Below are positions 1,474 through 54,763 of a stretch of DNA of 64,000 bases, in pieces. Source of the DNA: Candidatus Latescibacterota bacterium (GTDB lineage Bacteria; Latescibacterota; UBA2968; UBA8231); the NCBI GenBank assembly GCA_964291625.2, contig OZ220090.1, positions 352,001-416,000 of the forward strand, written 5' to 3'. How positions within the stretch are numbered: the stretch's first letter is position 1; each line of letters begins with the position of its first letter. The notes beneath the pieces are model-generated. The model was not told the origin of the DNA. It was given only the letters and a program-made list of their open reading frames with translations, and did not search any database. Made by a program: the position numbers and the translations under genes.

Positions 1474-3420
1474 ATGACGGAGCACCCCCCCCCGGGCACA
1501 GGTCCGGTGCGGGCTCCGCGCACCCTGGTGGCCGGCTCGGCCATGTGCGTGCTCATCGCCGCCTGGGGGCCCTACAACCTTCTCGTGCACCGCGGGTCCT
1601 GCCTGACGATCGACTTCTCCACGGGGGCGGCGATCGCCGTCCTGTTCTTCGCCGTCTTCTTCCTCAACGGCCTGCTGCGCGCCTTCCTCCCGGGGCTGTC
1701 CCTCTCCTCCGGCGAGCTCTCCATCAGCTACCTGATGGCGGCGATCGCCTGCTCGATCTGCACCATGGGGCTGACCCTGCAGCTGGTGCCCCTGGTACCG
1801 GCCATGGACTACCTGGCCTCGCCGGAGAACGAGTGGGCCCGCGACATCCTGCCCTACGTGCCCCACTGGCTGCGGCTGCAGGGGGAAGACGTGATCCTCG
1901 GCTTCTACGAGGGCCTCTCCGAGGGCGAGTCGATCCCGTGGGGGGCCTGGGCGAAGCCGCTGCTGGCGTGGATGCCGGTGATCATCGGCCTCTACCTGGT
2001 CATGATCTCCCTGGCCGTGCTCTTCAGCCGCCAGTGGATCGAGCACGAGCGCCTCGCCTACCCCCTGGCCCAGGTGCCCCTGGTCATGACCTCCCAGGAG
2101 GAGGGCCGGGCCCTGAACGCCTTCTTCCGCAACCCGGTCATGTGGCTGGGCTTCTCCGTGCCCTTCACCAACACCGGCCTGAACGGCCTCCACTTCTACC
2201 ACCACTTCGTGCCGAATTTCTATCTGAACACCCACATCAACCTCTTCCACGACATGCCCGCCCTGTGGTTCAACCTCACCTTCCCGATGATGGGCTTCGC
2301 CTACCTGGTCCATCAGGAGGTGGCCCTGAGCGTCTGGCTGTTCTACCTGGTGGGCTACGCCGTCTCCGGCGTCTTCGCCCAGGTCGGCATCACCCGGAGC
2401 GTGACGCTGGACTACTACGCCCAGGCCGACGGCGGTCCGATCTTCTCCTACGTCCAGTTCGGCGCCCTCATGGCCCTGGTCGGCTATACCCTGTGGACGG
2501 CGCGGGGGCACCTGCGCGGCAGCTGGCGGGAAGCCTGGCGCTCGTCGACCTCCTCGGCCGGGGACGCCATGTCCATGCGCAGCGTCTACGTGCAGCTGAT
2601 CCTGGGGCTGGTGCTGATGACGGGATGGTTCGTCGCCGTGGGCGTGCCTCTCTGGGCGGGAGCGGCCTTCGTCCTGGTGATGACGGCCACCTTCCTGGGG
2701 ATCACCCGCATCCTCTGCGAGGCGGGGCTGGCCCGGACCCGGGCGCAGCTTCCCACGCCCACGGTGCTGCGCTCCATGGCCGGCACCGCCCACCTGGGCC
2801 CGGCCGGGACGATCGGCGTCCTGGGCTACGGGCAGGTCTGGATGAGCGACGTGCGCACCTTCGTCATGGCCGCCACCGCCAACGGCCTCAAGCTGACGGC
2901 CTCGATCCGGGGCAAGGCCCTGGTCCTGGGGAGCACGGTGCTGGCGGTGGTCCTCGCCCTCGTCGCGTCGATCGGGTCGACCCTCTACTTCGCCTACGAG
3001 AGCGGCGCCCACAACGCCAACAGCTGGTTCTTCATCCGCGCCCCCCGGTACATCGTCGACTTCGCCGCCGGGTACGTGCGGGAGCCGGCGGCCGTCGACG
3101 TGGCGGGCATGGGGCTGATGGGGCTGGGCGGGGCGGGCATGCTCGGCCTCTACTGGATCCGCGCCCACTTCATGGGCTTTCCCATCCACCCCCTGGGGCT
3201 CGCCGTCTCGCAGATGGCCCTCACCCGCCACCTGTGGTTCGCCATGTTCGTCGTCTGGCTGCTGAAGGCGGTCATGATCCGCTACGGCGGCCCCCGGCTG
3301 CTGCTGCGGGTGCGGCCCTTCTTCCTCGGCTTCATCCTCGGGGAGTTCGTGGCCCTCGCCACGTGGCTGATGATCGACCTGGCCACGGGGGCCCAGGGCA
3401 ACAGCCTCTACAACGTCTGA
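1474..3420 (+). CDS. Polytopic membrane protein, DUF6785/DUF6784 (OPT-like putative peptide transporter) family
   Basis: 648 aa with many TM helices; motifs RQWIEHERLAYPLAQVP, FPIHPLG, RYGG...RPFFLGFILGE. Confidence 0.75.
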   Translation: MTEHPPPGTGPVRAPRTLVAGSAMCVLIAAWGPYNLLVHRGSCLTIDFSTGAAIAVLFFAVFFLNGLLRAFLPGLSLSSGELSISYLMAAIACSICTMGLTLQLVPLVPAMDYLASPENEWARDILPYVPHWLRLQGEDVILGFYEGLSEGESIPWGAWAKPLLAWMPVIIGLYLVMISLAVLFSRQWIEHERLAYPLAQVPLVMTSQEEGRALNAFFRNPVMWLGFSVPFTNTGLNGLHFYHHFVPNFYLNTHINLFHDMPALWFNLTFPMMGFAYLVHQEVALSVWLFYLVGYAVSGVFAQVGITRSVTLDYYAQADGGPIFSYVQFGALMALVGYTLWTARGHLRGSWREAWRSSTSSAGDAMSMRSVYVQLILGLVLMTGWFVAVGVPLWAGAAFVLVMTATFLGITRILCEAGLARTRAQLPTPTVLRSMAGTAHLGPAGTIGVLGYGQVWMSDVRTFVMAATANGLKLTASIRGKALVLGSTVLAVVLALVASIGSTLYFAYESGAHNANSWFFIRAPRYIVDFAAGYVREPAAVDVAGMGLMGLGGAGMLGLYWIRAHFMGFPIHPLGLAVSQMALTRHLWFAMFVVWLLKAVMIRYGGPRLLLRVRPFFLGFILGEFVALATWLMIDLATGAQGNSLYNV

Positions 3421-3426
3421 CTCCCC

Positions 3427-4173
3427 TCAGCCCTCCCGTTCCTTCTTCCAGGCCTCGTACTCGGGACGCGCCTCCTCCGACAGGGGGTAATACTTCCTCA
3501 GGTGGCCGCCCTCGAGCAGCCGCAGGCGGCTGAACTCCTCCCACTCGGCGTGGGAGCCGGCGGCCTCCACGAGCTCGGCAGCCAGCTTCGCCGGCACCGC
3601 CACGACCCCGTCGTCGTCGGCGACGATGATGTCCCCGGGCAGGACCAGGCTGTCGTTGAGGGCGATGGGCACGTTCACCGCGTAGGGGAAGATGCTCGTC
3701 TGGGTGTGGAAGTTGGGGGTCACCCCCCGCAGCCACAGGCCCAGGTCGAGGTCCCGCTGCACGATGGGGTAGTCGCGGATGCAGCCGTCGACGACGACGC
3801 CGGCGCCACCGCGGCCCTGGAAGAAGGTGAGCATCATGTTGCCGAAGACGCCGCTCTTCATGTCGCCCCGGGCGTCGACGCAGACCACGTCGCCCGGCTG
3901 CGTGTGGTAGAGCACGTGGCGGTGGAGCTGCGACTCCGGGTCGGCGTACTCGTCCTGGTCGTACACGTCCTCGCGCTGGGGCATGAACTGCAGGGTGAGG
4001 GCCGGGCCGACGACGCTCTTTCCGGGGGTGAAGGGCACGGGCCCGAGGACGTGGGGGTCCTGGATGCCGAGGCGCTTGAGCTCACCGGCGGCGGTGGCCG
4101 AGCCGATCTCCCGGAGCCCGTCGATGATCTCCGGCGGCGGGCGCTCGATGTCGGGGGTGTGGGTGTCGGCCAT
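3427..4173 (-). CDS. RraA/HMG aldolase family protein
   Basis: VVGPALTLQFMPQRED, GVFGNMM, VVDGCIRD, VLPGDIIVADDDGVVAVP; purine-rich RBS before ATG at 4173. Confidence 0.85.
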   Translation of the reverse strand: MADTHTPDIERPPPEIIDGLREIGSATAAGELKRLGIQDPHVLGPVPFTPGKSVVGPALTLQFMPQREDVYDQDEYADPESQLHRHVLYHTQPGDVVCVDARGDMKSGVFGNMMLTFFQGRGGAGVVVDGCIRDYPIVQRDLDLGLWLRGVTPNFHTQTSIFPYAVNVPIALNDSLVLPGDIIVADDDGVVAVPAKLAAELVEAAGSHAEWEEFSRLRLLEGGHLRKYYPLSEEARPEYEAWKKEREG

Positions 4174-4321
4174 CTCTTCCTCCTCGCGGTTTCGGTGGGC
4201 CCCTGTCTTTGCCGGCGGGAGAAGGTAGGCAAGAACCCCGGCCCCATGGTGTCCACACTGACGTCCGGTTGACGGCCCCCGCGGCATGACGTTAGCTCCC
4301 TGACCGCCGAAGGCATCCCCC

Positions 4322-6169
4322 ATGAACGAAGCCCTCCTCATCGCCGCCGCCGTCGTCGTCCTCGCCGCGCTCCTCGCCCTGCGCAGACGGCGGGGGAGCG
4401 GCGGCCACCTCGACAGCTCCTACGACGAGTCCGAGGGCGAACGCCGCCTGCACAAGTGGGGATACTCGGACACCCGCTTCGAGTTCGACGGCCCGCGCAG
4501 CGTCCGGGTCACCGGATCCCGCTACCCGCTGGCCGGGTACAGCCTGCCGTTCTTCGTGCCCTTCGCCGAGGAGGTTCTCGGCGTGCCGATCACGCCCGGG
4601 GAGATGGTGCCCGAAGTGGAGCGCGGGCCCCTGCCGCCGGGGCGCCCCTGCGAGGCCTTCCTCGACGCCTGCCGGCAGCGCCTCGGCGAGGACCGCACCG
4701 CCACCGACGACGAGACCCGCCTCACCCACAGCCACGGCCAGCTCAGCGTCGACGAGATCTACCGCCTCCTCTACATCGGCAGCCTGCCGCGGGTGGCCGA
4801 CCTCGTGGTCTTTCCCGAGAGCGAGGAGGAGGCGCGCCGACTCGTGAGCCTGGCGGCGGAGCACGGCGTCTGCCTGGTGCCCTACGGGGGCGGCACCAAC
4901 GTCAGCGGCGCCCTCTCCCTGCCGCCGTCGGAGGAGCGCCCCATCGCCTCCGTCGACATGAGCCGCATGAACCGCATCCTGTGGCTGGACGAGGACAACC
5001 TGCAGGCCTGCGTCGAGGCGGGGATCACCGGCAAGGAGCTGGAGCGCCTCCTCGGGGAGCGCGGCTACACCACGGGCCACGACCCCGACAGCGTCGAGCT
5101 CTCCACCCTGGGGGGCTGGATCGCCACCAACGCCAGCGGCATGAAGAAGAACCGCTACGGCAACATCGAGGACATCGTCGTCGAGGCGACCCTGGCGACG
5201 CCGGCGGGGGAGGTCGAGTCCCGCCGCCCCACGCCGCGCAACTCCACCGGGGTGGCGCCGCGCCTCTGGCTCTTCGGCTGCGAGGGCAACCTCGGCCTGA
5301 TCACCAAGGCGGTGATCAAGATCCACCCGCGGCCCGAAGCGCGGGAGTACGGCTCCCTGGTCTTCCCCTCCCTCGACCACGGGGTCCGCTACCTGAAAGC
5401 CCTGCGCCGCGAGGGGGGCCTGCCGGCGAGCATCCGCCTGGTGAACAACACCGAGTTCCGCTTCGGTCAGGCCCTGAAGCCGGCGCCCTCGGCCGTGACC
5501 CGCGTCAAGACGGCGGTGCAGCGCTTCGTCCTGGCGCGGGTGAAGGGCTTCGACCTGCGAAGCCTGGCGGCGTGCACCATCGTCATGGAGGGCACCCGCC
5601 GCGAGCTGGCCTGGCAGAAGCGCATCATCTTCTCCCTGGCCAAGGGCTTCGGCGGCGTCAGCGGCGGCGCCCACAACGGCCGGCGCGGCTACATGCTCAC
5701 CTTCGCCATCGCCTACATCCGCGACTTCCTCAACCAGTTCCACATCATGGGCGAGACCTTCGAGACCTCGGTGCCCTGGGACCGCATCCATGACGTGACC
5801 GGCGCCGTCGAGGAGAAGCTCGCCGAGCAGTGCCGCAGCCACGGCGTGCGGGGGACGCCCTACCTGTCCTACCGCATCACCCAGACCTATCACACCGGGG
5901 TGTGCATCTACTTCACCATGGGCTTCAGCGGCAAGGACCTGGAGGCGCCCGACCGCGTCTACCACGACGTGGAGGCGAGTCTGCGGCAGGCGATCCTCGA
6001 CCACGGCGGCTCCCTGTCCCACCACCACGGCGTCGGCAAGATCCGCGCCGCCTTCCTGCCGGAGGTGCAGACCGAGGCCAGCCTGAAGATCCTGCGCGAG
6101 ACCAAGCGGGCCATGGACCCGGACGACGTCTTCGGCATCGCCAACGGCGCCCTCGCCGCCGACCGCTGA
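4322..6169 (+). CDS. agpS: Alkyldihydroxyacetonephosphate synthase (AGPS-like FAD-linked enzyme)
   Basis: PYGGGTNV, GHDPDSVELSTLGGWIATNASGMKKNRYGNIED, PASIRL, GYMLTFAIAYIRD, ETFETSVPWDR, RITQTY..GVCIYF, GSLSHHHGVGKIR are hallmark AGPS motifs; N-terminal TM helix. Confidence 0.85.
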   Translation: MNEALLIAAAVVVLAALLALRRRRGSGGHLDSSYDESEGERRLHKWGYSDTRFEFDGPRSVRVTGSRYPLAGYSLPFFVPFAEEVLGVPITPGEMVPEVERGPLPPGRPCEAFLDACRQRLGEDRTATDDETRLTHSHGQLSVDEIYRLLYIGSLPRVADLVVFPESEEEARRLVSLAAEHGVCLVPYGGGTNVSGALSLPPSEERPIASVDMSRMNRILWLDEDNLQACVEAGITGKELERLLGERGYTTGHDPDSVELSTLGGWIATNASGMKKNRYGNIEDIVVEATLATPAGEVESRRPTPRNSTGVAPRLWLFGCEGNLGLITKAVIKIHPRPEAREYGSLVFPSLDHGVRYLKALRREGGLPASIRLVNNTEFRFGQALKPAPSAVTRVKTAVQRFVLARVKGFDLRSLAACTIVMEGTRRELAWQKRIIFSLAKGFGGVSGGAHNGRRGYMLTFAIAYIRDFLNQFHIMGETFETSVPWDRIHDVTGAVEEKLAEQCRSHGVRGTPYLSYRITQTYHTGVCIYFTMGFSGKDLEAPDRVYHDVEASLRQAILDHGGSLSHHHGVGKIRAAFLPEVQTEASLKILRETKRAMDPDDVFGIANGALAADR

Positions 6170-6177
6170 GCCGCCCG

Positions 6178-7029
6178 GTGTCCGGGGAACCTTCGGTCGT
6201 CATCACCGGCGCCTCCTCCGGCCTGGGAGCGGCCCTGGCCGGCGCCTTCGCCCGCGACGGCGCCCGTCTGACGCTGATGGCCCGCCGGGCGGACCGCCTG
6301 GCGGAGGTCGCCGAGGCCTGCGGCCCCCGGGTGGAGACCGTGCCGGGGGACGTCACCGTCCCCGGTGACGGGGAACGGCTCGTGGAGGCTGCCGTCGCCG
6401 CCCACGGCGGCATCGACTGCCTCGTCGCCAACGCCGGCATGAGCATGTGGGCCCCCTTCGAGGAGGTGCGCGACCTGTCCCTGTTCCGCCGGCTCATGGA
6501 AGTCAACTATCTCGGCGCCGTGCACTGCGTCCACCCGGCGCTGCCCCATCTGAAGGAGAGCCGCGGGCAGTTCGTGGCGATCTCGTCGATCCAGGGCCGC
6601 GTGGGGGTGCCGCAGCACACGGGGTACTCGGCCTCCAAGCACGCCCTGCAGGGGTTCTGCGACGCTCTGCGCATGGAGCTGGAGGGCAGCGGCGTCGACG
6701 TCCTCACCGTGGTCCTGCACTGGCTCGGGGGCACGGAGCTGCGGGAGCAGGCCCTGGCCGCCGACGGCCGGCCCTTCGGCGAGGGCCGCCGCCGGCCGAG
6801 CCGCGACGCCATCGGCCTCGAGGAGACCTGCGGCGCCGTCCTGCGGGCGGTGAAGGAGCGCCGCCGCGAGCTGGTGATGCCCTGGAAGCTGAAGGCCCTC
6901 CTCGCCATCCGCGCCCTGAGGCCGCGGCTGTCGGAGGCGCTTGTGCGCCGGGCGGTGGACCGCCAGGGGGGCGAGGCCGTGGGGGAGGCGCCGGAGTCCG
7001 ACCCCGAGAGTGGAGAGGACCGGCCGTGA
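6178..7029 (+). CDS. SDR oxidoreductase, DHRS7B/PexRAP-like
   Basis: TGASSGLG, ANAG, VAISSIQG, YSASK catalytic motif; GTG start 8 bp after the AGPS stop. Confidence 0.8.
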   Translation: MSGEPSVVITGASSGLGAALAGAFARDGARLTLMARRADRLAEVAEACGPRVETVPGDVTVPGDGERLVEAAVAAHGGIDCLVANAGMSMWAPFEEVRDLSLFRRLMEVNYLGAVHCVHPALPHLKESRGQFVAISSIQGRVGVPQHTGYSASKHALQGFCDALRMELEGSGVDVLTVVLHWLGGTELREQALAADGRPFGEGRRRPSRDAIGLEETCGAVLRAVKERRRELVMPWKLKALLAIRALRPRLSEALVRRAVDRQGGEAVGEAPESDPESGEDRP

Positions 7030-7124
7030 ACCTCGGAATGATCGGGCGATTGCCCGCATCCGCAATCGTTGGCAAGTTTTCTCCCTCTCCGCCGCTCCCC
7101 TCACCCCGTCGAATCGGAAAACCC

Positions 7125-10004
7125 ATGACGCGCCGGCCATCCCTCGCCCCGACCCTTCCCCTCCTCGCCGTCGTCCTGTCCCTCGCCGGCTGCGCCGCCC
7201 GGCCCTCCGCCACCGGGACCGCCGCCGAGGCCGCCGCCGACAGCCTGGACCCGGTGCTGCCCGCCGATCCCAAGGTCACCCTCGGGACCCTCGACAACGG
7301 CCTGCGCTACGTCATTCGGGCCAACGCCAAGCCCGAGAACCGGGCCGAGCTGCGTCTCGCCCTCGACGTGGGCTCGATCCTGGAGACCGACGAGGAGCAG
7401 GGGCTGGCCCACTTCGCCGAGCACATGGCCTTCAACGGCACCACCCACTTCGAGAAGCAGGAGCTGTGGTCCTACCTGGAGTCGGTGGGGCTGCGCACGG
7501 GAGCCGACCTCAACGCCCACACCAGCTTCGACGAGACCGTGTACAAGCTCACCGTGCCCCTCGACTCGGTGCGGGTGGTGGAGCAGGCCTTCCAGATCTT
7601 CGAGGACTGGGCCCACGGAATCAGCTTCGACGGCGAGGAGATCGAGAAGGAGCGGGGCGTCGTCATCGAGGAGTGGCGCCGCGGCCAGGGCGCCGGCCTG
7701 CGCATGCTCTACAAGCAACTGCCCGTACTGTTCGCCGACTCCAGGTACGCCGACCGCATCCCCATCGGGCAGAAGGCGGTTCTCGACACCTTCCACCACG
7801 ACACGCTCCGCGAGTTCTACCGCCGCTGGTACCGGCCGGACCTGATGGGGTTCGTCGCCGTGGGCGACTTCGAGCCCGCCTACATGGAGAGCCTGATCAC
7901 CGAGTATCTGGGGAGGATCCCGGCCGCCGAAGAGGCCACGGTGCGGCCCGAGGCGCCGGTGCCCGATCACGAGGAGACCCTCTTCGCCATCGTCACCGAC
8001 CCGGAGGCCACCTCCAACGTCGTCCGCGTCATGCACAAGGAGGACCCGGGCGAGGACTCGACCCGGGGCGGCTACCGGCAGCGCCTGATCGAGAGCCTCT
8101 ACCACGGCATGCTCAACCGGCGGCTCTACGAGCTGACCACCAGGGCGGAGCCGCCCTTCCTCGGGGCCTTCTCCGGCGGCTACTACTCGGTGCGCACCAA
8201 GGAGATGATCCAACTCGCCGCCGGCGTCGAGAACAACGGTTTCGACCGCGGCCTGGAGGCCCTGCTCACCGAGGCCGAGCGCGTCCGCCAGCACGGCTTC
8301 ACGGCCACCGAGATGGCGCGCCAGAAGAAGGAGCAGCTGCGCGCCATGGAGCAGTCCTGGCGCGAGCGCGACAAGCTCCAGTCCCGGGGCTTCGCCGCCG
8401 AGTACGTGCGCCACCTGCTGGAGGGCGAGCCGATCCCCGGCATCGAGGGGGAGTACGAGCTCCACCAGGAGCTGCTCCCCACCATCACCCTGGAGGATGT
8501 GAACGAGCTGGCGGGGGAGTGGACCGGCGGCGGCAACCGCGTCATCACCGTCACCGCTCCCGACAAGGAGGGGGTCGGCGTGCCCACCGAGGAGGAGCTG
8601 CTCGCCATCCTGGAGATGGTCGCCGCCCGTCCGGTGGAAGCCTACGTCGACCAGGGCGCCGACCTGCCGCTGCTGCCCGACGAGCCCATGGGGGGGTCCG
8701 TGGCCTCCCGCGCCGAGATCCCGGAGCTCGGGGTCACCCGGTGGGAGCTGTCCAACGGGGTGCGCGTCTTCCTCAAGCCCACGGACTTCAAGAACGACCA
8801 GATCCTGTTCAGGGCGTACAGCCCCGGCGGCCACTCCCTCGTGGAGGACGAGGAGTTCGTCGCCGCCTCCACCGCCGCCACCGTGGTCACCGAGGGCGGC
8901 CTCGGGAACTTCGACAAGGTGGGCCTCATCAAGTGGCTCAGCGGCAAGGTGGTGAGCGTCTCGCCATACGTCTCGGAGCTGGAGGAGGGGCTGTCGGGCT
9001 CGGCCTCGCCCCAGGACGCGGAGACGATGTTCCAGATGATCCACGCCTACTTCACCGCCACGCGCTCGGACAGCGCCGCCTTCACCTCCCTCCACACCCG
9101 CCTGCGGGCGTGGCTGGAGAACCGCAGCGCCGACCCCGAGACCGCCTTCGCCGATACGGTCTCGGTGACCATGTCCCAGTACCACCACCGGGCCCGCCCC
9201 TGGTCGCTGGCCATGCTCGACGAGCTCGACCTGGAGGCCTCGGTGCGGATCTTCCGAGACCGCTTCGCCGACGCCTCGGACTTCACCTTCATCTTCGTCG
9301 GCAACTTCAGCGCCGAGGCGATGGAACCCCTGGTCAACCGCTACCTGGCGAGCCTGCCGGCGCCGGGACGCGGGGAGAGCTGGCGCGACGTGGACATCGA
9401 CCCGCCCGCGGGGGTGGTGACGAAGGTCGTCCGCGCCGGCATGGAGCCGAAGAGCCAGACCCGCATCCTCTTCACCGGCCCCTTCGACTTCGACGTGCGC
9501 GCCGACCGGATCCACCTGAGCCTGATGGCCCAGGCCTTCCAGATCAAGCTGCGCGAGGTCCTGCGCGAGGACCTGGGCGGCACCTACAGCGTCGGCGTGC
9601 GCGCCTCCCTCTCCCACTGGCCCGAGGAGCGCTACCAGCTGCGGGTGAGCTTCGGCAGCGACCCGGAGCGGGCCGAGGAGCTGAGCGCCGTGGTCTTCGA
9701 TCAGATCGACAGCCTGCGCTCCTCCGGCCTCGACTCGACGTACGTGGAGAGGGTCAGGGAGATCCGCCGCCGCGAGCACGAGGTCGCCCTGAAGGAGAAC
9801 AACTGGTGGCTCGGCAGCCTGCGCTATGCCGACACCCACGGGATCGACCCGCTGCTGATCCTCGACCGGTCCCTGGTGGAGGGGCTGACGGCGGCCGACG
9901 TGCACCGCATGGCGCAGCGCTTCGACACCGGCAACTACGCCCGGTTCGTCATGCTGCCGGCGCCGGTGGACAGCACCGCGGCCGAGGTGGAACCCGGGCC
10001 GTGA
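7125..10004 (+). CDS. M16 family zinc peptidase (PqqL-like) lipoprotein
   Basis: Lipobox LAGC; inverted zinc motif HFAEH; LDNGLRY, NAHTSFDETVY, LSNGVRV, LREDLGGTYS. Confidence 0.9.
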   Translation: MTRRPSLAPTLPLLAVVLSLAGCAARPSATGTAAEAAADSLDPVLPADPKVTLGTLDNGLRYVIRANAKPENRAELRLALDVGSILETDEEQGLAHFAEHMAFNGTTHFEKQELWSYLESVGLRTGADLNAHTSFDETVYKLTVPLDSVRVVEQAFQIFEDWAHGISFDGEEIEKERGVVIEEWRRGQGAGLRMLYKQLPVLFADSRYADRIPIGQKAVLDTFHHDTLREFYRRWYRPDLMGFVAVGDFEPAYMESLITEYLGRIPAAEEATVRPEAPVPDHEETLFAIVTDPEATSNVVRVMHKEDPGEDSTRGGYRQRLIESLYHGMLNRRLYELTTRAEPPFLGAFSGGYYSVRTKEMIQLAAGVENNGFDRGLEALLTEAERVRQHGFTATEMARQKKEQLRAMEQSWRERDKLQSRGFAAEYVRHLLEGEPIPGIEGEYELHQELLPTITLEDVNELAGEWTGGGNRVITVTAPDKEGVGVPTEEELLAILEMVAARPVEAYVDQGADLPLLPDEPMGGSVASRAEIPELGVTRWELSNGVRVFLKPTDFKNDQILFRAYSPGGHSLVEDEEFVAASTAATVVTEGGLGNFDKVGLIKWLSGKVVSVSPYVSELEEGLSGSASPQDAETMFQMIHAYFTATRSDSAAFTSLHTRLRAWLENRSADPETAFADTVSVTMSQYHHRARPWSLAMLDELDLEASVRIFRDRFADASDFTFIFVGNFSAEAMEPLVNRYLASLPAPGRGESWRDVDIDPPAGVVTKVVRAGMEPKSQTRILFTGPFDFDVRADRIHLSLMAQAFQIKLREVLREDLGGTYSVGVRASLSHWPEERYQLRVSFGSDPERAEELSAVVFDQIDSLRSSGLDSTYVERVREIRRREHEVALKENNWWLGSLRYADTHGIDPLLILDRSLVEGLTAADVHRMAQRFDTGNYARFVMLPAPVDSTAAEVEPGP

Positions 10005-12148: not shown

Positions 12149-14815
12149 CGGTACCGACACCCGTCACCCTGCGCCGCCTCTGCCGCGGCGCCCTGCCGGC
12201 CATCCTCGGCGCCAGCGACGGCAAGGGGATGATGAAGATGGTGGAGGAGGTCGTCCGCCACGACCGCTGGAACTCCTTCGACCGCTTCCACGATACCACC
12301 GGGGTCCTCGTCGACATGTACGAGAAGGCGGGGGCCGGCGCCGAGGTGACCCCGGTGCAGACCGGGGGCCGCATCGGCACCGGGCGCTGGATCATCCAGG
12401 AGGCCCAGGACGTCAGCTCGGCCACCCTCGACGTGGTGCGGCCCTTCCGCGAGCGCGTCGCCGACTACCGCGACAACCCCTGGCACGCGGTCCAGTGGAC
12501 GGCGGCCACCCCCAGGGGCGGGCTGCGCTGCGAGCTGGTCGTGGTCGACGACGAGGCCGCCCTCGACCGCATGGGGCCCGACAGCCTCGAGCGGGCGGGC
12601 GGTGCTCACCCGCCTCGACATCCGCGGCCGCATGGAGCGGTTCGCCCAGAAGGGAGCGGCGGCGGTGATCATGGAGAAGGAGGTGCCCAACAACCCCGGC
12701 GCCGTGGCCTGGATCAAGTTCGGCTGGGGCGCCGTGCCCATGGCTCACGCCACGGCCAGGCTGGTGGGGCTGGTCGTGTCCCGGCGCCAGGGGGACCGCC
12801 TCCGGGGGCAGCTTCGGCAGCATGGGCGCCTCGTGGTGCAGGTCCGCGTCGACGCCCGGCGCTACGTGGGCAGCCACGACGTCGTCTGCGGGGTGGTCCC
12901 CGGCGGCGGCGATCCTCAGGACGAGGTCTGGGCCATCGCCCACTCCGCCGAGCCGGGGGCCGTGGACAACGCCTCGGGCTGCGCCGTCACCGTCGAGATC
13001 GCCCGGGTCCTCGAGGGGCTCATCGCCTCCGGCGCGCTGCCGCGCCCGAGGCGGACGATCCGCCTGATCAACGGCTACGAGTGCTACGGCTTCTTCGCCT
13101 ACCTGGAGAGGGTCAAGCGGCTGCAGCCGCCCCTGGCCGGGGTCTGCATCGACACCCTCGGCTCCCGGCCGGGGATCTGCGACGGCCGCCTCGAGTGGCG
13201 GTCCACGGTGCCGGGCTCCGCGGGCTTCGTCGACTGGATCGGGGAGAAGATCCTGCGCTCCACCCTGCGGCAGTACCGGGCCGCCGGTTACCACCTCGCC
13301 CTCGGTCCCTTCATGGCCACCAGCGACACCCTCATAGGCGATCCCCAGTACGGCTACCCCTGTCCTTGGATCACCAACCACCACAAGCGCGACGGCAGCT
13401 CCTGGGACGCCTACCACACCTCCGCGGACCAGCTCGAGCTGCTGAGCCCGGCGGGCCTCAAGACCTGCGCCGCGGCCATGGCCGCCTACCTCTACTACCT
13501 GGCCGACGCCGCCACGCCGGAAGTCCTGCAGATCGCCCGCTCCGAGACCGAGCGCCTGACCGGGGAGCTGCGCGCCCACCGCCGCCGCCTCGACCGCGAC
13601 GGCGCCGAGTTCCTGCGCCGCGCTCACGAGACCAGCCTGACGCGGCTGCAGCGCTGGCTCTGGGGGGGTGACCGCCGCGAGGTGATGGCCGAGCTGGGCG
13701 AGATGAGTCGCCAGATGGGACAGGCCGCCTCCAGCGTCCGCCGCCGCGGACCGGCTGTCCGCTCCACCGCGGCCCTGCGCCGCATCCCGCGCCGCAAGGC
13801 CCTGCTGACGCCGACTACCGAGAACCTGCCCACGCCGGTGGCCCGCAGGATCTCCGGCGCCCGCCAGAGTCCATGGGCTTTGTACTGGGCCGACGGCCGC
13901 CTCACCCTCGCCGAGATCACCGCCGCCCTCGCCTGGGAGCGGGGGGGCCTGCTGGCGCCCGGGGCGACCCCGAGGCGGGGAGAGGTCAGGAGCGAAGACG
14001 TGGTCCGGTTCTTCGAGGCCCACGCCGAGATCGACTACGTCGACCTGCCCGAGCGCCATGAGATGGTCGACAAGGCGAAGATCGTCGCCGACCTGCGCCG
14101 CCTCGGCGTCGAGCGCGGCATGGACCTCATGGTCCACAGCTCCCTGTCGAAGATCGGACACGTGGAGGGCGGCGCCGAAACGGTCGTCTCGGCCCTGCTG
14201 CAGGCGGTGGGATCATCGGGGACGCTGCTCATGCCCTCCTTCAACCACCGCGCCGCCCAGGTCTACAACCGCATGGCGACGCCGACCACCAACGGCGCCA
14301 TCCCCGACGCCTTCTGGCGCCGTCCCGGGGCGGTGCGCAGCGAGCACCCCACCCACGCGGTGGCCGCCATCGGGCCGCGCGCCGAGCGCTACTGCGCCTC
14401 CCACCTGGAGGCGGGGATCTGGGAGCCGGAGAGCCCCATCGGCCAGCTGGTCCACGGCGGCGGCTGGATCCTGGCCCTCGGCACCACCCACTGGACCTCC
14501 ACGGCCTACCACGTGGCCGAGATGTCCGTGCCCTGCGGCTGCATCGACCCCTTCGGCAACATCGACCGCGTCGTCGGCGGCGACGGCCGCGTCGAGGAGG
14601 TCTGGGGACTGGCCTTCCGCCGGGGGGAGTGCCCGGTGGAGATCTCCCCCAAGCTCGACGACGCCCTCGACCGCCGCGGACTGCAGCGGCGCGGCAGGGT
14701 GGGGGAGGCGGAGTGCGAGCTGGTCCGGGCCGAGGACCTGTGGCGGGTTCGCCGCGAGCACCTGCGGACGGTCTGCCCGACCTGCCGCATCGCCCCCAGC
14801 TACCGGGACGGGTGA
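12145..14815 (+). CDS. Fusion of a DUF4910/M28-like aminopeptidase domain and an AAC(3)-family N-acetyltransferase domain; frameshift near 12595
   Basis: IAHSAEPGAVDNASG and YHTSAD (M28-like); C-terminal DLRRLGV..G..LMVHSSLSKIG.VEGG, GTLLMPSF, RSEHPTHAVAAIG (Antibiotic_NAT). ATG overlaps the cyclase stop. Confidence 0.75.
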
Positions 14816-48715: not shown

Positions 48716-50013
48716 AGGAACTGTCCAGAAATAAGTGCTGTTCTTTTTGGTGGCAGGGTGTTACCTTTGATGCGTGGACACGGAGAGCACTCTGCGGGCG
48801 AAATACAAAGCCCTGGCGCCGGTGTTGAACGAGCGCACGGGACGGTTGTGGGCCGCGTCGGAGGCGCAAGCCCTGGGGCATGGCGGCATTGCCGTGGTGG
48901 CTCGGGCCACGGGCCTGTCGCGGACCCGGATCGCTCGCGGCCTGCAGGAACTGCAGTCGGACGCCCCGTTGGATCCCGGCCGGGTGCGTCGGCCGGGCGG
49001 CGGTCGCAAGCGACGCGTCGACACCGACGTGACGCTGTTGTCGGACCTCAACGCCCTGGTCGAACCGGTCACCGCCGGGGCGCCGGACGACAGCCCCTTG
49101 CGATGGACGTCGAAGAGCACCCGCAAGTTGGCGGCCGAGTTGCAGGCCCTGGGCCATTCGGTGAGTCCTGGCCTCGTCAGCGGACTGTTGCGCGAGCTTG
49201 GCTACACGCTGCAGGCCAATCGCAAGACGAGAGAAGGCACCCAACACCCGGATCGGGACGCCCAGTTTCACTATCTCAACGACCAGGTCCAAAGGGCCCA
49301 GGCTCAAGGCCAGCCGGTCATTTCGGTGGACACCAAGAAGAAGGAGCTGATCGGCGACTTCAAGAACGGGGGCCGGGCCTGGCGTCCGAAGGGCGAGCCG
49401 GAGCGCGTGAAGGTGCACGATTTCGTCATCCCCGCCCAGGGCAAGGCGATTCCCTACGGGGTCTACGACCTGAACCGCAACGAAGGCTGGGTCAGCGTCG
49501 GGGTCGACCACGACACGGCCGGTTTCGCGGTGAACGCCATCCGCAGCTGGTGGAAACGCATGGGGCGTCCGGCCTACCCGGCGGCCTCGCACCTGTGGAT
49601 CACGGCCGATGCGGGGGGCAGCAACGGCCCGAGACTGCGGCTGTGGAAATGGGAATTGCAGCGCTTCGCCGATCGCACGGGCCTGACGATCACCGTCTGT
49701 CACTATCCTCCGGGCACGAGCAAGTGGAACCGCATCGAGCATCGCCTGTTCTCCTATATCGCCAAGAACTGGCGAGGCCAGCCGTTGGTCAGTCTGGCCA
49801 CGGTGGTCAACCTGATCGGCCGGACGACCACGAAGAAAGGGCTTCGGGTACGCGCGGAGATCGACAAGCGATCGTATCCCAAAGCGGTGGTCGTCAAGGA
49901 CGAGCAAATGGAGCGCATCGATCTCTCGCCCCATGAGTTTCACGGGGACTGGAACTACACGATCCGGCCCACAGCGGCCAGCCGAAGTGAATCATCTGTT
50001 TCGTGACAAAGCC
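48716..50013 (+). mobile_element. ISAzo13-family insertion sequence (ends uncertain by about 2 bp)
   Basis: Imperfect terminal IRs: GGAACTGTCCAGAAATAAGTG versus the reverse complement of the right end, GGCTTTGTCACGAAACAGATG. Short target duplication CTA (48713-48715 and 50013-50015) inside hsdM. Confidence 0.88.
48774..50006 (+). CDS. ISAzo13-family DDE transposase
   Basis: RVRRPGGGRK, SPLRWTSKS, HPDRDAQF, ISVDTKKKELIG, ADAGGSNG, PPGTSKWNRIEHRLFS, FHGDWNY. Confidence 0.95.
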   Translation: MDTESTLRAKYKALAPVLNERTGRLWAASEAQALGHGGIAVVARATGLSRTRIARGLQELQSDAPLDPGRVRRPGGGRKRRVDTDVTLLSDLNALVEPVTAGAPDDSPLRWTSKSTRKLAAELQALGHSVSPGLVSGLLRELGYTLQANRKTREGTQHPDRDAQFHYLNDQVQRAQAQGQPVISVDTKKKELIGDFKNGGRAWRPKGEPERVKVHDFVIPAQGKAIPYGVYDLNRNEGWVSVGVDHDTAGFAVNAIRSWWKRMGRPAYPAASHLWITADAGGSNGPRLRLWKWELQRFADRTGLTITVCHYPPGTSKWNRIEHRLFSYIAKNWRGQPLVSLATVVNLIGRTTTKKGLRVRAEIDKRSYPKAVVVKDEQMERIDLSPHEFHGDWNYTIRPTAASRSESSVS

Positions 50014-52379
50014 TACGTGCGCGGCAAGTACCGCGACGTGATCCTGCCCATGACCGTGCTGCGCCGGCTGGACGCGGTGCTGGAGGAGAGCAAGCAGGAG
50101 GTCCTGGGGATGAAGGCCACCCTCGACCAGGCCGGCGTCGTCGAGCAGGACGCCACCCTGCGGCAGACCGCCGGGCAGGCCTTCTACAACACCTCGAAGT
50201 TCACCCTGAAGGACCTGAGGGCCCGCGCCAACCGCCAGCAGCTCGAGGCCGACTTCCGGGCCTGGCTCGACGGGTTCTCGCCCAACGTGCAGGACATCCT
50301 CGACAACTTCGAGTTCCGCAACCAGATCCAGCGGCTCTCCCGGGCCGACGCCCTGGGCACGCTGATCGAGAAGCTGACCTCGCCCGACATCAACCTGAGC
50401 CCGGTCCCGGTCCACGGTTCCGACGGCACGGTCCGGCACCCCGGCCTGGACAACCACGGCATGGGCACGATCTTCGAGGAGCTGATCCGGCGCTTCAACG
50501 AGGAGAACAACGAGGAGGCGGGCGAGCACTGGACCCCCCGCGACGCCGTGACCCTGATGGCCAAGCTCGTCTTCCTGCCCGTGGCCGACCGGATCAAGTC
50601 CGGCACCTACCTGATCTACGACGGGGCCTGCGGCACCGGGGGCATGCTGACCGTGGCCGAAGACGTGCTCCAGCAGCTCGCCGCCGACCACGGCCGGCAG
50701 GTCTCCACCCATCTCTATGGCCAGGAGATCAATGCCGAGACCTACGCCATCTGCAAGGCCGACCTGCTGCTGAAGGGGGAAGGGGACGCGGCCGACAACA
50801 TCGTGGGCGGCCCCGAGCACTCGACCCTGGCCAACGACGCCTTCCCGTCCCGCGAGTTCGACTTCATGCTCTCCAATCCGCCCTACGGCAAGAGCTGGAA
50901 GACCGACCTGGAACGCATGGGCGGCAAGCGCGACATGCGCGACCCGCGCTTCGTGATCGAGCACGACGGCGATCCCGAGTACTCCCTGGTCACCCGCTCC
51001 AGCGACGGCCAGATGCTCTTCCTCGCCAACAAGCTCTCCAAGATGAAGCCGGGCGGCAGCCGCATCGCCGAGGTCCACAACGGCAGCTCCCTGTTCACCG
51101 GCGACGCCGGCCAGGGCGAGAGCAACATCCGCCGCTGGATCATCGAGAACGACTGGCTGGAGGCGATCGTCGCCCTGCCCCTCAACATGTTCTACAACAC
51201 CGGCATCGCCACCTACGTCTGGGTCCTCAGCAACCGCAAGCCGGAGCACCGCCGCGGCAAGGTGCAGCTGATCGACGCTACCGGGTGGCACCGGCCCCTG
51301 CGCAAGAACCTGGGCAAGAAGAACTGCGAGCTCGGCGAGGAGGACATCCAGCGTATCTGCGACACCTTTCTCGCCTTCGAGGAGAGCGAGCAGAGCAAGA
51401 TCTTCGACAACGCCGCCTTCGGCTACTGGAAGGTGACGGTCGAGCGGCCGCTGCGCCTCGAAGGAGCCGACCCCGACCGCGCCTGCAAGGCCGCCGAGAT
51501 CAAGAAGCTGAAGGAGAGCTGCGAGCGCAGCGAGAGTGCTCCGGCTGTCATCAGGAAGATCCACAAGCGAGGCACGGAAGCCGATCCGCTACGCGGCCGG
51601 TTCGAGGCGACGGTGAACGGCCGACACGCCGTGGTGGAGTACGAGCCGGACACCGCCCTGCGCGACACCGAGCAGATCCCGCTGCAGGAGGAGGGCGGCA
51701 TCGAGGCGTTCCTGCGGCGGGAGGTCCTGCCATATGCCCCCGACGCCTGGTACCAGCCGGACAGCGTGAGAATCGGCTACGAGATCAGCTTCACGCGGTA
51801 TTTCTACAAGCCCCAGCCGATGCGCACGCTGGAGGAGATCGGTGCGGACATCCTGGCGTTGGAGAGGGAGACGGAAGGGCTGCTCGACGATCTGCCCCTG
51901 GTGCGCGAACCGGCGACTGAGTACGGCAAGCCGCGCATCTACGTGGATACCTCGGTGATCGGCGGCTGCCATGACGATGAATTCCGCGAGCCATCGATGC
52001 AGTTGTTCGAGATGTTTCGCCAGGGAGAAGCCACGATGCTTCTCTCGGGCATCACTCTGGATGAACTAGCGGATGCTCCGCCCCCATCAGGCAGGCCACC
52101 AGCACCGTTCCCTCGGAACACAAGGAGCTCCTTGCCGTTTCAAGAGAGGCAGAAGAGCTCGCCGATGCCTACATCGCGGCTGGGGCCATGGGTGGGGCCA
52201 ACCTGAACGATGCGCTGCACATCGCTCTCGCGACCCTGGCCAAGGCCGATGTCCTGGTGAGCTGGAACTTCAGGCACATGGTGAACTGGCGGCGCATCAG
52301 GGCCTGCAACGAGGTCAATCGCAAGAATGGATACCATGCCATCGACATTCGCACCCCGGAGGAAACCGTCCATGACTGA
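50014..52379 (+). CDS. hsdM: Type I R-M methyltransferase HsdM (main part) fused at its C-terminus to a PIN domain; frameshift in the C-run near 52082
   Basis: AGEHWTPRD, YDGACGTGG (motif I), NPPY (motif IV), GYEISFTRYFY, then without a stop into KPRIYVDTSVIGG (PIN). Confidence 0.85.
51928..52379 (+). CDS. PIN (VapC-like) nuclease domain at the 3' end of hsdM
   Basis: IYVDTSVIGG..D.EF, S.ITLDEL, frameshift, then ELADAYI..G, DALHIALAT...DVLVSWNFRHMVN..RI...N...GY..IDIRTP. Confidence 0.8.
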
Positions 52380-52587
52380 AGACCGTCCCACCAAGAAGAG
52401 ATTCGACTGCGTCAAGTTCATGCGCGAGGCCCGCGCCCGCAGTGCCGCAAAGACAGCCCACATGACGACTGGCGAACGGATTGAGTGGTTCAATACCCGT
52501 CGGTATGACGACCCCGTGCTGGAAGAAATGGCCGCGCGATTGCGCCAATCCATACAGGACAGGGCGACGGATAGCCGCGCAGACTGA
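52372..52587 (+). CDS. Small protein, probable antitoxin partner of the PIN domain
   Basis: 71 aa; RBS GGAGGA; start overlaps the PIN stop; KKRFDCVKFMREAR motif resembles small genes I recall next to this PIN class. Confidence 0.6.
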   Translation: MTEDRPTKKRFDCVKFMREARARSAAKTAHMTTGERIEWFNTRRYDDPVLEEMAARLRQSIQDRATDSRAD

Positions 52588-52619
52588 CAGGCCGAGAAGC
52601 GATTCCACCGGAGGGAGCA

Positions 52620-52754
52620 ATGCCTTACGCGGAAGACTGGAACGACCCGAAGGCCATGTTGCGAGACGCCGTGCTCTGCCATTTCGACGACACCACGCCG
52701 CGACCCAGGTTGATTCGCCTTCATTCTGTCCGCGATGAGGTCCACTTGGCATGA
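52620..52754 (+). pseudogene. 44-aa remnant of a HicB-like antitoxin (not in the ORF track)
   Basis: RBS GGAGGGAG, then MPYAEDWNDPKAMLRDAVLCHFDDTTPRPRLIRLHSVRDEVHLA; DAV.CHFD...P..IRLH.VRDE matches the C-terminal half of a HicB-fold family; stop overlaps the hsdS ATG. Confidence 0.55.
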
Positions 52755-54187: not shown

Positions 54188-54241
54188 CGCTCGGCCAGCC
54201 GAGCCATCCCTATTATGTTTCCATCGCAAAGGAGGCAACGC

Positions 54242-54759: not shown

Positions 54760-54763
54760 CGGA

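Follow-up and report, generated by a model that had tools for sequence, protein, structure and literature searches.

To our knowledge, AGPS-type ether-lipid synthesis has been shown genetically among bacteria only in Myxococcus. The M. xanthus agps operon consists of MXAN_1676, MXAN_1675 and MXAN_1674, and deletion of MXAN_1676 lowers both alkyl and vinyl ether lipids (PMC9131029 and PMC13012113); in PMC9131029 the agps route is described as the minor one in this organism, and the last gene of the operon, MXAN_1674, encodes an NAD-dependent Rossmann protein. An earlier reading made from the DNA alone (the sequence-only reading) had held that the characterized bacterial ether-lipid routes differ from the animal one, a statement that this operon makes incomplete. 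In Latescibacterota, agps homologs have been counted in 67 of 92 MAGs (PMC11868695), and standalone elbD homologs have been noted along with agps (preprint 10.64898/2026.06.23.733905). The AGPS part alone is thus not new, and the route is known in outline from myxobacteria; we found no published account of the agps-SDR pairing or of the split FAR/acyltransferase cluster, and no published bacterial enzyme named for alkyl-DHAP reduction.

The gene pair described here lies in a 64,000-nucleotide stretch of contig OZ220090.1 from an uncultured, sponge-associated Candidatus Latescibacterota bacterium, the whole of which we call the window (Table 1). Like the M. xanthus operon it places a bacterial AGPS ortholog beside a Rossmann-fold NAD(P) protein, and FAR (fatty acyl reductase) and acyltransferase functions belong to both systems. 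Judged by the published descriptions, the two differ in that M. xanthus has its FAR and a GNPAT-like acyltransferase fused in one protein (FARAT, MXAN_1675) whose gene adjoins agps, whereas neither is adjacent in the window, and in that the window AGPS has an N-terminal membrane anchor. With the animal peroxisomal pathway (FAR1, GNPAT, AGPS and DHRS7B/PexRAP) the locus shares the proposed reaction order, an orthologous AGPS and the assignment of keto reduction to a classical SDR. Animal AGPS carries a presequence; the bacterium, unlike animals, has no peroxisomes, and its AGPS would be anchored by the N-terminal helix.

Table 1. Positions of the agps-SDR pair, of motifs in its two proteins and of candidate partner genes
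Feature	Position	Strand	Basis
agps, putative alkylglycerone-phosphate (alkyl-DHAP) synthase ortholog (EC 2.5.1.26), FAD-dependent, 615 aa	4322..6169	+	Pfam, PDB search, aligned catalytic residues
N-terminal hydrophobic membrane anchor of AGPS, residues 4-20, then RRRR	4331..4381	+	hydropathy
Spacer of 8 bases, agps stop codon to SDR start codon	6170..6177	+	read off sequence
Classical SDR, 283 aa, proposed alkyl/acyl-DHAP reductase	6178..7029	+	Pfam, NCBIfam, gene context
WGYSDTRF	AGPS residues 46-53		exact string search
VTGSRYPL	AGPS residues 63-70		exact string search
PASIRL	AGPS residues 368-373		exact string search
GYMLTFAIAYIRD	AGPS residues 456-468		exact string search
ETFETSVPWDR	AGPS residues 478-488		exact string search
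RITQTYHTGVCIYF	AGPS residues 518-531		exact string search
SHHHGVG	AGPS residues 566-572		exact string search
TGASSGLG (Gly-rich dinucleotide motif)	SDR residues 10-17		exact string search
SSIQG	SDR residues 136-140		exact string search
YSASK	SDR residues 150-154		exact string search
ADGRPFG	SDR residues 195-201		exact string search
ElbD-like protein, FAR-Sterile-AMP-binding, 1397 aa	C1:4598131-4602321		own genome
Candidate acyltransferase, 649 aa, C-terminal third with PlsC-type fold and HX4D	C1:3772974-3774923		own genome

The flavoenzyme

Pfam recognizes FAD_binding_4 (PF01565, residues 160-298, E 3.7e-38) and FAD-oxidase_C (PF02913, residues 337-604, E 7.2e-35) in the agps product. In a PDB search its residues 43-608 align with residues 93-656 of guinea-pig AGPS (4bby; 514 bits, E 5e-153), and since the alignment begins at residue 43 it covers the AGPS-specific N-terminal region. 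Dictyostelium AGPS (2uuu) gives 309 bits (E 6e-91). Outside AGPS, the highest-scoring flavoenzyme is D-lactate dehydrogenase 8jdb with 84.7 bits (E 5e-23), and other VAO-family enzymes reach at most 85 bits. The genome has a single agps copy, its next FAD oxidases standing at E 5e-23 or worse.

Window residues Arg372, Tyr530 and His567-569 align with guinea-pig Arg419, Tyr578 and His615-617, the last being the HHH loop, which has a role in AGPS; PASIRL and SHHHGVG are also conserved, and the Tyr of CIYF aligns with a position at which the sequences printed for PDB 4bby and 4bca disagree. Guinea-pig positions 578 and 419 correspond to Dictyostelium 508 (the catalytic Tyr) and 352 (the active-site Arg); in Dictyostelium numbering Tyr508, Arg352 and Arg447 are catalytically important (PMC3509576). 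The sequence-only reading had seen an FAD enzyme resembling animal AGPS from end to end, and the scores agree with it, as does the recovery by exact string search of every motif that it quoted from this protein and from the SDR. They support placing the flavoenzyme as an AGPS ortholog, distinct from generic glycolate and lactate oxidases.

The N-terminal membrane anchor claimed in that reading is present as well, with a mean Kyte-Doolittle hydropathy of 3.09 across its 17 residues. A like segment, with a start codon upstream, stands 37-48 residues ahead of the WGY motif in 60 of 80 related loci, and by the positive-inside rule the catalytic domain would be cytoplasmic.

The SDR and its linkage to agps

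The second gene lies within an open reading frame at 5830-7029 (+), and actually begins at an in-frame GTG (position 6178), giving the eight-bp interval first reported. No promoter-like or terminator-like sites were found within 3900-7600. Of the 30 bins of 4200-7100, 27 are covered by contigs from a metatranscriptome run on sponge (X2), and one contig, 212 bases long with one mismatch, bridges the agps-SDR junction (6092-6303); this is a hint of expression, as RNA libraries can contain DNA.

Conservation of the pair, for which the sequence-only reading had proposed a check, is extensive. In 67 of the 80 related loci the SDR gene is found downstream of agps in the same orientation, within 200 bp in 51 of these by a count of the locus table, and the pair also occurs in a locus labeled Neomarinimicrobiota (L079). 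It is absent from eight of the 80 with at least 6 kb downstream; three of these (L020, L024, L025) belong to the same group and five (L074, L075, L076, L078, L080) to other phyla, and the agps neighbors there are unrelated (a HAD hydrolase, ABC transporters and DUF885, for example). Among 121 sampled genomes of the phylum, 76 have both genes, five AGPS only, none the SDR only and 40 neither, so that the SDR, at a threshold of E <= 1e-40 that the five fail, accompanies agps in 76 of 81 positive genomes and occurs in 0 of 40 negative ones, counts whose independence is overstated by the relatedness of the genomes. Each positive genome has exactly one match at this threshold among its 25-94 SDR candidates. 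Within the class, agps is found in 38/40, 27/29 and 13/13 genomes of three families. The SDR is tightly tied to AGPS by position and by co-occurrence.

Its substrate is less easily approached. The protein matches Pfam adh_short (E 5.6e-45), with the Rossmann fold beginning at residue 7, and NCBIfam NF004825 (PRK06181; 274.9 bits, cut-off 215; residues 6-262 on model positions 8-265 of 268). PRK06181 is a broad family without an assigned function, and look-alike clusters in the Atlas occur most often in Pseudomonadota and Planctomycetota; PRK06181 membership is therefore no guide to the substrate. A profile of 35 orthologs scores 140.5 bits on clavaldehyde dehydrogenase 2jah, about 123 on 11-beta-HSD1 entries and 115 or less on FabG-type entries. 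Clavaldehyde dehydrogenase and 11-beta-HSD1-like SDRs are thus the nearest solved structures, and because their substrates are unrelated the match says no more than that the protein is a classical SDR. The tetrad Asn110, Ser137, Tyr150 and Lys154 is invariant in 35/35 orthologs. The residue after beta-strand 2 usually sets NADP preference in SDRs; here it is Arg in 16 of the 35 and Pro in 15, and so gives no consistent pointer to NAD(H) or NADP(H).

The sequence-only reading had gone further and likened the SDR to DHRS7B/PexRAP, a member of the 11-beta-HSD1-like subgroup, and this specific kinship found no support. Neither name appears among the best 120 relatives listed, the Atlas clusters listed, or ten looked-up proteins of the best 150 representatives (five of the ten eukaryotic, unnamed or called 'ketoreductase domain-containing'); nor does it among the best 120 relatives listed for a choanoflagellate protein, P0214. 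In the tree, the AGPS-linked SDR clade includes none of the six eukaryotic relatives. DHRS7B has an N-terminal transmembrane segment at about residues 18-38 (PMC13256971), and the window SDR does not, its most hydrophobic 17 residues (7-23) averaging 1.51. The function of an SDR cannot be read from its sequence; in Dictyostelium the top BLAST match to DHRS7B was not the functional reductase (PMC13256971).

Reductase and acyltransferase partners

Within the window there is no FAR, ElbD-like or acyltransferase homolog, and the genes downstream of the pair encode an M16 peptidase and a BNR protein. In sister families, 31 of the 80 loci have the order FAR, 645-aa PlsC-type-fold protein, AGPS, SDR. 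The FAR (NAD_binding_4 plus Sterile) is encoded about 2 kb upstream of agps in these and directly upstream in one more, and the gene between encodes a protein of 640-666 aa; from the published descriptions, this arrangement of separate upstream genes differs from that of M. xanthus. Families f2 and f3 have, in place of an ElbD-like protein, just a standalone FAR about 540 aa long.

A check of the window's own genome, also suggested in the sequence-only reading, turned up both a FAR domain and a candidate acyltransferase. The FAR domain belongs to a 1397-aa protein encoded on a different contig from agps; as a FAR plus AMP-binding protein it fits the published description of M. xanthus ElbD (elbA-E cluster), and unlike ElbD it has no acyltransferase domain detected by Pfam. 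Inspected by eye, the C-terminal region of the protein shows motifs resembling FPEG and VPV but no HX4D.

The candidate acyltransferase is the genome's own homolog (43% identity) of the protein encoded between FAR and AGPS elsewhere. In its predicted fold (pLDDT 83, pTM 0.87) the best Foldseek match, and the sole one at E <= 0.001, is Thermotoga maritima PlsC (5kym; E 4.9e-4, probability 1.00, target TM 0.63), and His449 of the HX4(D/E) motif is invariant in 32/32 sequences; the Pfam Acyltransferase model does not recognize it (E 0.12). It may use DHAP as acceptor. Two further differences from the animal pathway are its roughly 400-residue helical N-terminal region, which has no fold match, and PEDS1: a PF10520 search of the 95% complete genome, run without a positive control, found no PEDS1/CarF desaturase, so the expected products would be alkyl (plasmanyl) lipids and not plasmalogens. 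Pathway genes are also linked, in two distinct arrangements, to the gene for a lipid kinase of the YegS/DAGK type.

The proposed pathway and its alternatives

We consider it fairly probable that agps and the SDR gene form an operon for two central steps of the AGPS-type (aerobic, 'eukaryote-like') ether-lipid pathway. By homology and retained catalytic residues only, the membrane-anchored AGPS would replace the acyl chain on 1-acyl-DHAP with a fatty alcohol, giving 1-O-alkyl-DHAP; the SDR, from its gene context, would then reduce the C2 keto group with NAD(P)H to give 1-O-alkyl-sn-glycerol-3-phosphate, which ordinary PlsC-type acylation would take into phospholipids. The fatty alcohol could be supplied by the FAR domain of the ElbD-like protein and acyl-DHAP by the 649-aa PlsC-fold protein. 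The FAR domain, acyltransferase, agps and SDR together fit two consecutive steps of such a route; it is likely that the bacterium makes alkyl ether lipids in an animal-like way, and the paired SDR probably carries out the step after AGPS. Keto reduction is proposed for it because the FAR-acyltransferase-AGPS cluster offers a candidate for every other step of the animal pathway, and in animals, yeast (Ayr1) and Dictyostelium classical SDRs perform this reduction (PMC13256971). Of the eukaryote-type two-gene operon put forward in the sequence-only reading, AGPS orthology, SDR linkage and the presence of FAR and acyltransferase stand, and the DHRS7B kinship is left unsupported.

It is unlikely, though worth weighing, that AGPS acts as proposed while the SDR serves this lipid pathway in a different way (converting fatty aldehyde to alcohol, or acting on a head group or another lipid ketone) and an unlinked enzyme reduces alkyl-DHAP. 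Linkage demonstrates a functional tie to AGPS and not a substrate, and there are many further SDR candidates in the genome (63 at first look). The M. xanthus operon has a different type of Rossmann protein, MXAN_1674, so no reductase type appears fixed to AGPS (PMC9131029). Against this, keto reduction would again be left without a candidate in the cluster. The cluster FARs also carry a C-terminal Sterile domain like the eukaryotic alcohol-forming FARs; Sterile-domain FARs take the reduction through to the alcohol, which leaves no obvious need for a separate aldehyde reductase.

Quite improbable is a salvage role, the alternative named in the sequence-only reading, in which the pair would remodel ether-lipid intermediates of a sponge host, taking acyl-DHAP or fatty alcohols from it rather than making them de novo. 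Several runs labeled sponge metagenome do contain the agps-SDR stretch, the two genes are not clustered with FAR or acyltransferase in the window's genome, and the YegS/DAGK-type kinase could, speculatively, phosphorylate alkylglycerols. Yet the genome encodes a FAR domain and candidate acyltransferase of its own, the pair is near-universal in three families, a spread unlike that of a recent, host-specific gain, and we know of no phosphorylated intermediate such as acyl-DHAP that crosses membranes. A third alternative is that the flavoenzyme is some other VAO-family oxidase or dehydrogenase acting on a different substrate, the SDR being a neighbor unrelated to it. Its NCBIfam matches might suggest this, as they are only sub-threshold GlcD-type ones (144.6 bits, cut-off 567.9), NCBIfam showing no AGPS model. 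This alternative is hardly credible beside the PDB scores, the aligned AGPS-specific N-terminal region, the retained catalytic Tyr, Arg and HHH, and the clustering with FAR and acyltransferase in the sister families.

The conserved agps-SDR pair offers a concrete candidate for the bacterial alkyl-DHAP reduction step, and the four-gene cluster of the sister families is a compact, co-expressible gene set for the possible synthesis of alkyl glycerol ethers in an uncultured phylum. Ether lipids are sediment biomarkers and abundant in sponges, and as far as we know their bacterial producers are largely unknown. A broader and decidedly tentative proposal is that this clade of PRK06181-type SDRs is the bacterial acyl/alkyl-DHAP reductase and the 640-666-aa protein a new DHAP acyltransferase family, which with a standalone FAR and the anchored AGPS would make up a complete unfused four-gene cassette, near-universal in one Latescibacterota class and sometimes joined by the YegS/DAGK-type kinase as a fifth gene; such bacteria, sponge symbionts included, might then be a major unrecognized source of the 1-O-monoalkyl glycerol ethers of sponges and sediments. 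It has been proposed that eukaryotes acquired the fused FARAT from myxobacteria, in a paper that found too little phylogenetic signal in AGPS (PMC13012113), and the presence of the pathway in bacteria with unfused FAR and acyltransferase bears on that proposal. Should the four-gene cassette reading be true, it would bring an unfused bacterial version of the pathway into the debate on the origin of eukaryotic ether lipids.

AGPS and the SDR gene behind it

By sequence comparison, the flavoenzyme encoded by agps is an orthologue of alkylglycerone-phosphate synthase (AGPS). In a search of all PDB sequences its top match is guinea-pig AGPS (4bby; E 5.1e-153, 514 bits, query residues 43-608 against chain residues 93-656), Dictyostelium AGPS (2uuu) matches at E 6.3e-91, and the top non-AGPS entry, a D-lactate dehydrogenase, comes at E 5.2e-23. 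NCBIfam returns nothing above threshold for this protein and only GlcD-type matches below it, so routine annotation would probably call it a generic FAD-linked oxidase. Counted along the alignment, Arg372 of the PASIRL motif corresponds to guinea-pig Arg419, Tyr530 of CIYF to Tyr578 (the sole position at which the printed 4bby and 4bca sequences disagree), and His567-569 of SHHHGVG to His615-617. Excerpts of a flavoenzyme review (PMC3509576) describe a covalent flavin mechanism for Dictyostelium AGPS, catalysis by which requires Tyr508, Arg352 and Arg447. The own genome holds one AGPS copy. A strongly hydrophobic stretch, residues 4-20, precedes RRRR in the protein, and a comparable N-terminal segment with an upstream start codon occurs in 60 of 80 related loci; the positive-inside rule predicts a cytoplasmic catalytic domain.

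The sequence-only reading had described agps as the first gene of a two-gene operon, and this is confirmed. Frames are commonly open far upstream in GC-rich DNA, and the window has about 70% G+C; the frame at 5830-7029 (+) is likewise open far 5′ of the short-chain dehydrogenase/reductase (SDR) domain, which itself starts at an in-frame GTG, with the agps stop codon 8 bases before it. The gene encodes a classical SDR (adh_short E 5.6e-45), which at 274.9 bits exceeds the cut-off of 215 set for NCBIfam PRK06181, a family without assigned function. Across 35 aligned orthologues Asn110, Ser137, Tyr150 and Lys154 are invariant, as are His181, Trp182, Thr186, Arg189 and Gly197 in the stretch 181-201 past the catalytic Tyr/Lys; one might speculate that the conserved Arg contacts the phosphate of the substrate. 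At the residue that commonly decides NADP preference, 16 of the 35 have Arg and 15 have Pro. No longer protein containing a window-type SDR was found at E <= 1e-30, which the search itself rates as weak evidence on fusions. A promoter/terminator scan of 3900-7600 gave no site, a result that is uninformative at 70% GC, and tRNA and Rfam scans of the whole window gave no match.

Features in the window and related features elsewhere in the genome and in one related locus
Feature	Position	Strand	Remarks
DUF6785 + DUF6784 protein	1474-3420	+	upstream of operon
RraA-like protein	3427-4341	-	divergent; listed start would overlap agps start
agps	4322-6169	+	615 aa; FAD_binding_4 + FAD-oxidase_C
SDR gene	6178-7029	+	283 aa
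M16 peptidase, then BNR-repeat protein	about 7.3-11.0 kb	+	downstream of operon; M16 domains from ~7311
ISAZ013-type DDE transposase	48774-50006		adjoins type I restriction-modification set; region 48774-57261
Type I restriction-modification set	HsdM 49933-52206; HsdS 52751-54187; HsdR-like from 54764		
ElbD-like protein	own genome C1:4598131-4602321 (L087:8131-12324)		1397 aa; NAD_binding_4 + Sterile (FAR), then AMP-binding
Homologue of 640-666-aa protein	own genome C1:3772974-3774923		43% identity, E 7.8e-169
YegS/DAGK_cat-type lipid kinase	own genome (G000) C1:4597 kb (L087:6907-7848)	-	divergent to ElbD-like gene
YegS/DAGK_cat-type kinase homologue	related locus L053:9881-10798		same strand as SDR

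The M16 peptidase and BNR-repeat genes are not kept beside agps and the SDR gene in the other loci scanned. Further along, an ORF at 12602-14815 (+) joins N-terminal M28 peptidase/DUF4910 matches to a full aminoglycoside 3-N-acetyltransferase domain in its C-terminal part (Antibiotic_NAT, E 4.5e-47). A dip in G+C to 0.58 at 52-54 kb coincides with the transposase/restriction-modification region, which is probably a mobile island.

Sequencing runs from 11 studies contain the window stretch, several of them labelled sponge metagenome. Contigs of the sponge metatranscriptome X2 reach 27 of the 30 bins of 4200-7100 and differ from it at few positions, and one of them (212 bases, a single mismatch) bridges the agps/SDR junction at 6092-6303; RNA libraries can contain DNA and a contig is not equal to a transcript, and we take this as no more than a hint of agps/SDR expression. 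Two other RNA runs, X18 and X19, cover 8/30 and 13/30 bins, holes in such cover being uninformative; the X19 pieces have up to 16 differing positions and may stem from relatives.

Conservation of the gene pair

A scan of one genome per species gave 548 AGPS relatives, the best 80 of which were retained; these loci are mostly from MAGs labelled Candidatus Latescibacterota or Gemmatimonadota. In 67 of the 80, agps has an SDR homologue downstream on its own strand; for 51 of these 67 the gap (tblastn gap, counted from the locus table) does not exceed 200 bp. Larger gaps, looked at in 14 loci, contain inserted ORFs of no evident relation or nothing clear. In L061, L038, L047, L052, L057, L072, L018 and L073, 0.7-1.1 kb of foreign-looking small ORFs stands between the two genes, as pairs of about 190 and 100 aa, one pair of 74 and 111 aa, or an ORF of 280 aa; their appearance is that of small gene pairs that have been inserted. 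Among the 13 loci lacking the SDR, three have less than 300 bp of downstream DNA (L004, L064, L066) and two about 1.1 kb (L027, L033). The gene is truly missing downstream in eight loci with at least 6 kb (L020, L024, L025, L074, L075, L076, L078, L080), the last five of which belong to other phyla. Neighbours in the SDR-less loci include HAD hydrolase, M81 peptidase, MacB/HlyD-type transporter, TPR, GCV_T-SHMT and DUF885 genes, and no alternative reductase was present among 10 ORFs scanned beside SDR-less agps.

Across 121 genomes drawn evenly from the phylum (the own genome included; being related, they are not independent of one another), AGPS is present in 81 at E <= 1e-60. By family these amount to 38/40, 27/29 and 13/13 in three families of one class (f1, f2 and f3, respectively), and 2/38 in all other families pooled. 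The SDR is found at E <= 1e-40 in 76 genomes, as a single match each out of 25-94 SDR candidates per genome. All 76 are AGPS-positive; none of the 121 has the SDR alone, 40 have neither gene, and five (G082, G085, G094, G108, G020) have AGPS alone. This pattern of one match per genome and of co-occurrence says that the SDR is a distinct orthologous group travelling with AGPS.

Relationship of the SDR to eukaryotic reductases

The SDR had also been likened to animal DHRS7B, and membership of that lineage is not supported by indirect tests, namely relative listings and a tree in which no named DHRS7B sequence was compared. Bacterial and unnamed proteins make up the best 120 relatives, and an Atlas search returned bacterial clusters only; among solved structures, a profile of the orthologues found clavaldehyde dehydrogenase first (140.5 bits) and then 11-beta-HSD1 entries (~123 bits). 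A search of 1.84 billion representatives gave 140,470 matches at E <= 0.001 and 370 at E <= 1e-30. Ten of the best 150, picked for N-terminal extensions, were looked up, and five proved eukaryotic, from Barroeca (a choanoflagellate), Pharyngomonas (a heterolobosean), Thecamonas, Spizellomyces (a chytrid) and Chlorokybus. These five (P0214, P0238, P0244, P0251, P0263) are 38-41% identical to the SDR, being among the best 150 of 140,470; they are unnamed or called 'ketoreductase domain-containing', and none of the ten bears the name DHRS7B. The choanoflagellate protein P0214 has as its own relatives a Salpingoeca 'SDR 10c' and then bacterial SDRs, with no DHRS7B among the best 120.

In a quick maximum-likelihood tree of 128 rows (representatives limited to 250-370 aa), 14 of 120 close relatives were taken as AGPS-linked, the adjacency of each being assumed. 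The 15 rows so taken form one group (SH-aLRT 88) within a 39-row group (97), and six eukaryotic relatives lie elsewhere, scattered among bacterial sequences. With no DHRS7B-named relative among those listed and these six outside the AGPS-linked group, the claim of DHRS7B kinship finds no support. One paper reports AGPS and no other pathway enzyme in Thecamonas (PMC13012113). Passages of two further papers assign the eukaryotic reductase step to classical SDRs (Ayr1, DHRS7B, DHRS7 and two Dictyostelium proteins) that are hard to recognise by sequence (PMC13256971; PMC13200781). From its context, it is plausible that the SDR works like DHRS7B.

Pathway partners and proposed function

The own genome (5.9 Mb, 2 contigs, 95% complete, 6.6% contamination) encodes a protein whose fatty acyl reductase (FAR) and AMP-binding domains fit the published description of ElbD; its gene is adjoined by a divergent YegS/DAGK-type lipid kinase gene and by Lgt. 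Pfam finds no acyltransferase domain in its C-terminus, and in this lineage the acyltransferase portion may be without activity or highly diverged. By eye, the last ~250 residues have FPEG-like and VPV-like motifs and no HX4D. Two small PlsC-type acyltransferases are also present. PEDS1/CarF (PF10520) has no match, and control genomes are equally without one, so that search is uninformative on absence.

A phylum search with the ElbD-like query found no more than a standalone FAR (~540 aa), in most cases a few kb away from AGPS, in f2, f3 and part of f1. Among the 80 agps loci, 31 encode a FAR ~2 kb upstream of AGPS and on its strand, and in one further locus, L078, the FAR is immediately upstream; in those 31 a protein of 640-666 aa is encoded between the two. 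The SDR follows in 30 of the 31, the exception, L066, stopping 229 bp past AGPS; the order in sister-family clusters is FAR, acyltransferase, AGPS, SDR, as at L053 2434-8680, where the second protein has 645 aa. The 640-666-aa protein is unrecognised by Pfam (Acyltransferase E 0.12) and has no PDB sequence match. An AlphaFold2 model of its own-genome homologue from 32 aligned sequences (pLDDT 83, pTM 0.87) matches a single Foldseek entry at E <= 0.001, namely PlsC of T. maritima, a lysophosphatidate acyltransferase (5kym; E 4.9e-4, probability 1.00, TM 0.63 normalised to target), the next being mycobacterial PatA at E 0.39. His449 of an HX4(D/E) motif is invariant in the 32 sequences, and the ~400-residue helical N-terminal part has no Foldseek match. 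On this model the protein is a putative acyltransferase. The neighbours of its own-genome gene include O-methyltransferase-like and enolase-superfamily proteins and none that is lipid-linked. The search proposed earlier for an acyltransferase and a fatty acyl reductase in this genome turned up a candidate for the one and a FAR domain, in the ElbD-like protein, for the other. In 11/80 loci the SDR gene has a YegS/DAGK-type kinase gene downstream on its own strand, directly after it in, for example, L055, L056, L063 and L071; such homologues near agps are 39-44% identical to the own-genome kinase, which might be an alkylglycerol or alkylacylglycerol kinase.

The sequence-only reading was wrong that characterised bacterial routes differ, since M. 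xanthus has an agps operon. As described in portions of two papers (PMC9131029; PMC13012113), it comprises MXAN_1676 (AGPS, sharing ~42% identity with the human enzyme), MXAN_1675 (a fusion of FAR and a GNPAT-like acyltransferase) and MXAN_1674 (a member of the NAD-dependent epimerase/dehydratase family); without MXAN_1676 ether lipids fall slightly, the main route being ElbD. FAR and acyltransferase are fused there, whereas they are unfused in the sister-family loci. Excerpts of a Black Sea study report agps homologues in 67/92 and elbD homologues in 50/92 Latescibacterota MAGs (PMC11868695), and those of a 2026 sponge-symbiont preprint report standalone elbD plus agps in such MAGs (10.64898/2026.06.23.733905). 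Supplements aside, 'DHRS7B' does not occur in PMC13012113 or PMC9131029, nor 'SDR' or 'short-chain dehydrogenase' in the preprint. In the literature searched, again supplements aside, we did not find agps and the SDR described as a conserved operon, a cluster of unfused FAR, acyltransferase (the Pfam-invisible one), AGPS and SDR, or an AGPS membrane anchor; agps neighbourhoods may be listed in Tables S8 and S14 of PMC11868695, in the preprint's supplementary table 2 and in the PMC13012113 datasets.

Alkyl-DHAP reduction is assigned to the SDR as the sole reaction of the animal pathway not covered by FAR, acyltransferase and AGPS. The idea of a eukaryote-type route stands in part: it keeps the AGPS orthology and the SDR as a very probable pathway partner, and the SDR's kinship to DHRS7B finds no support. 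With fair confidence, we regard that partner as most likely the alkyl-DHAP reductase, an enzyme that would reduce the alkyl-DHAP made by AGPS.
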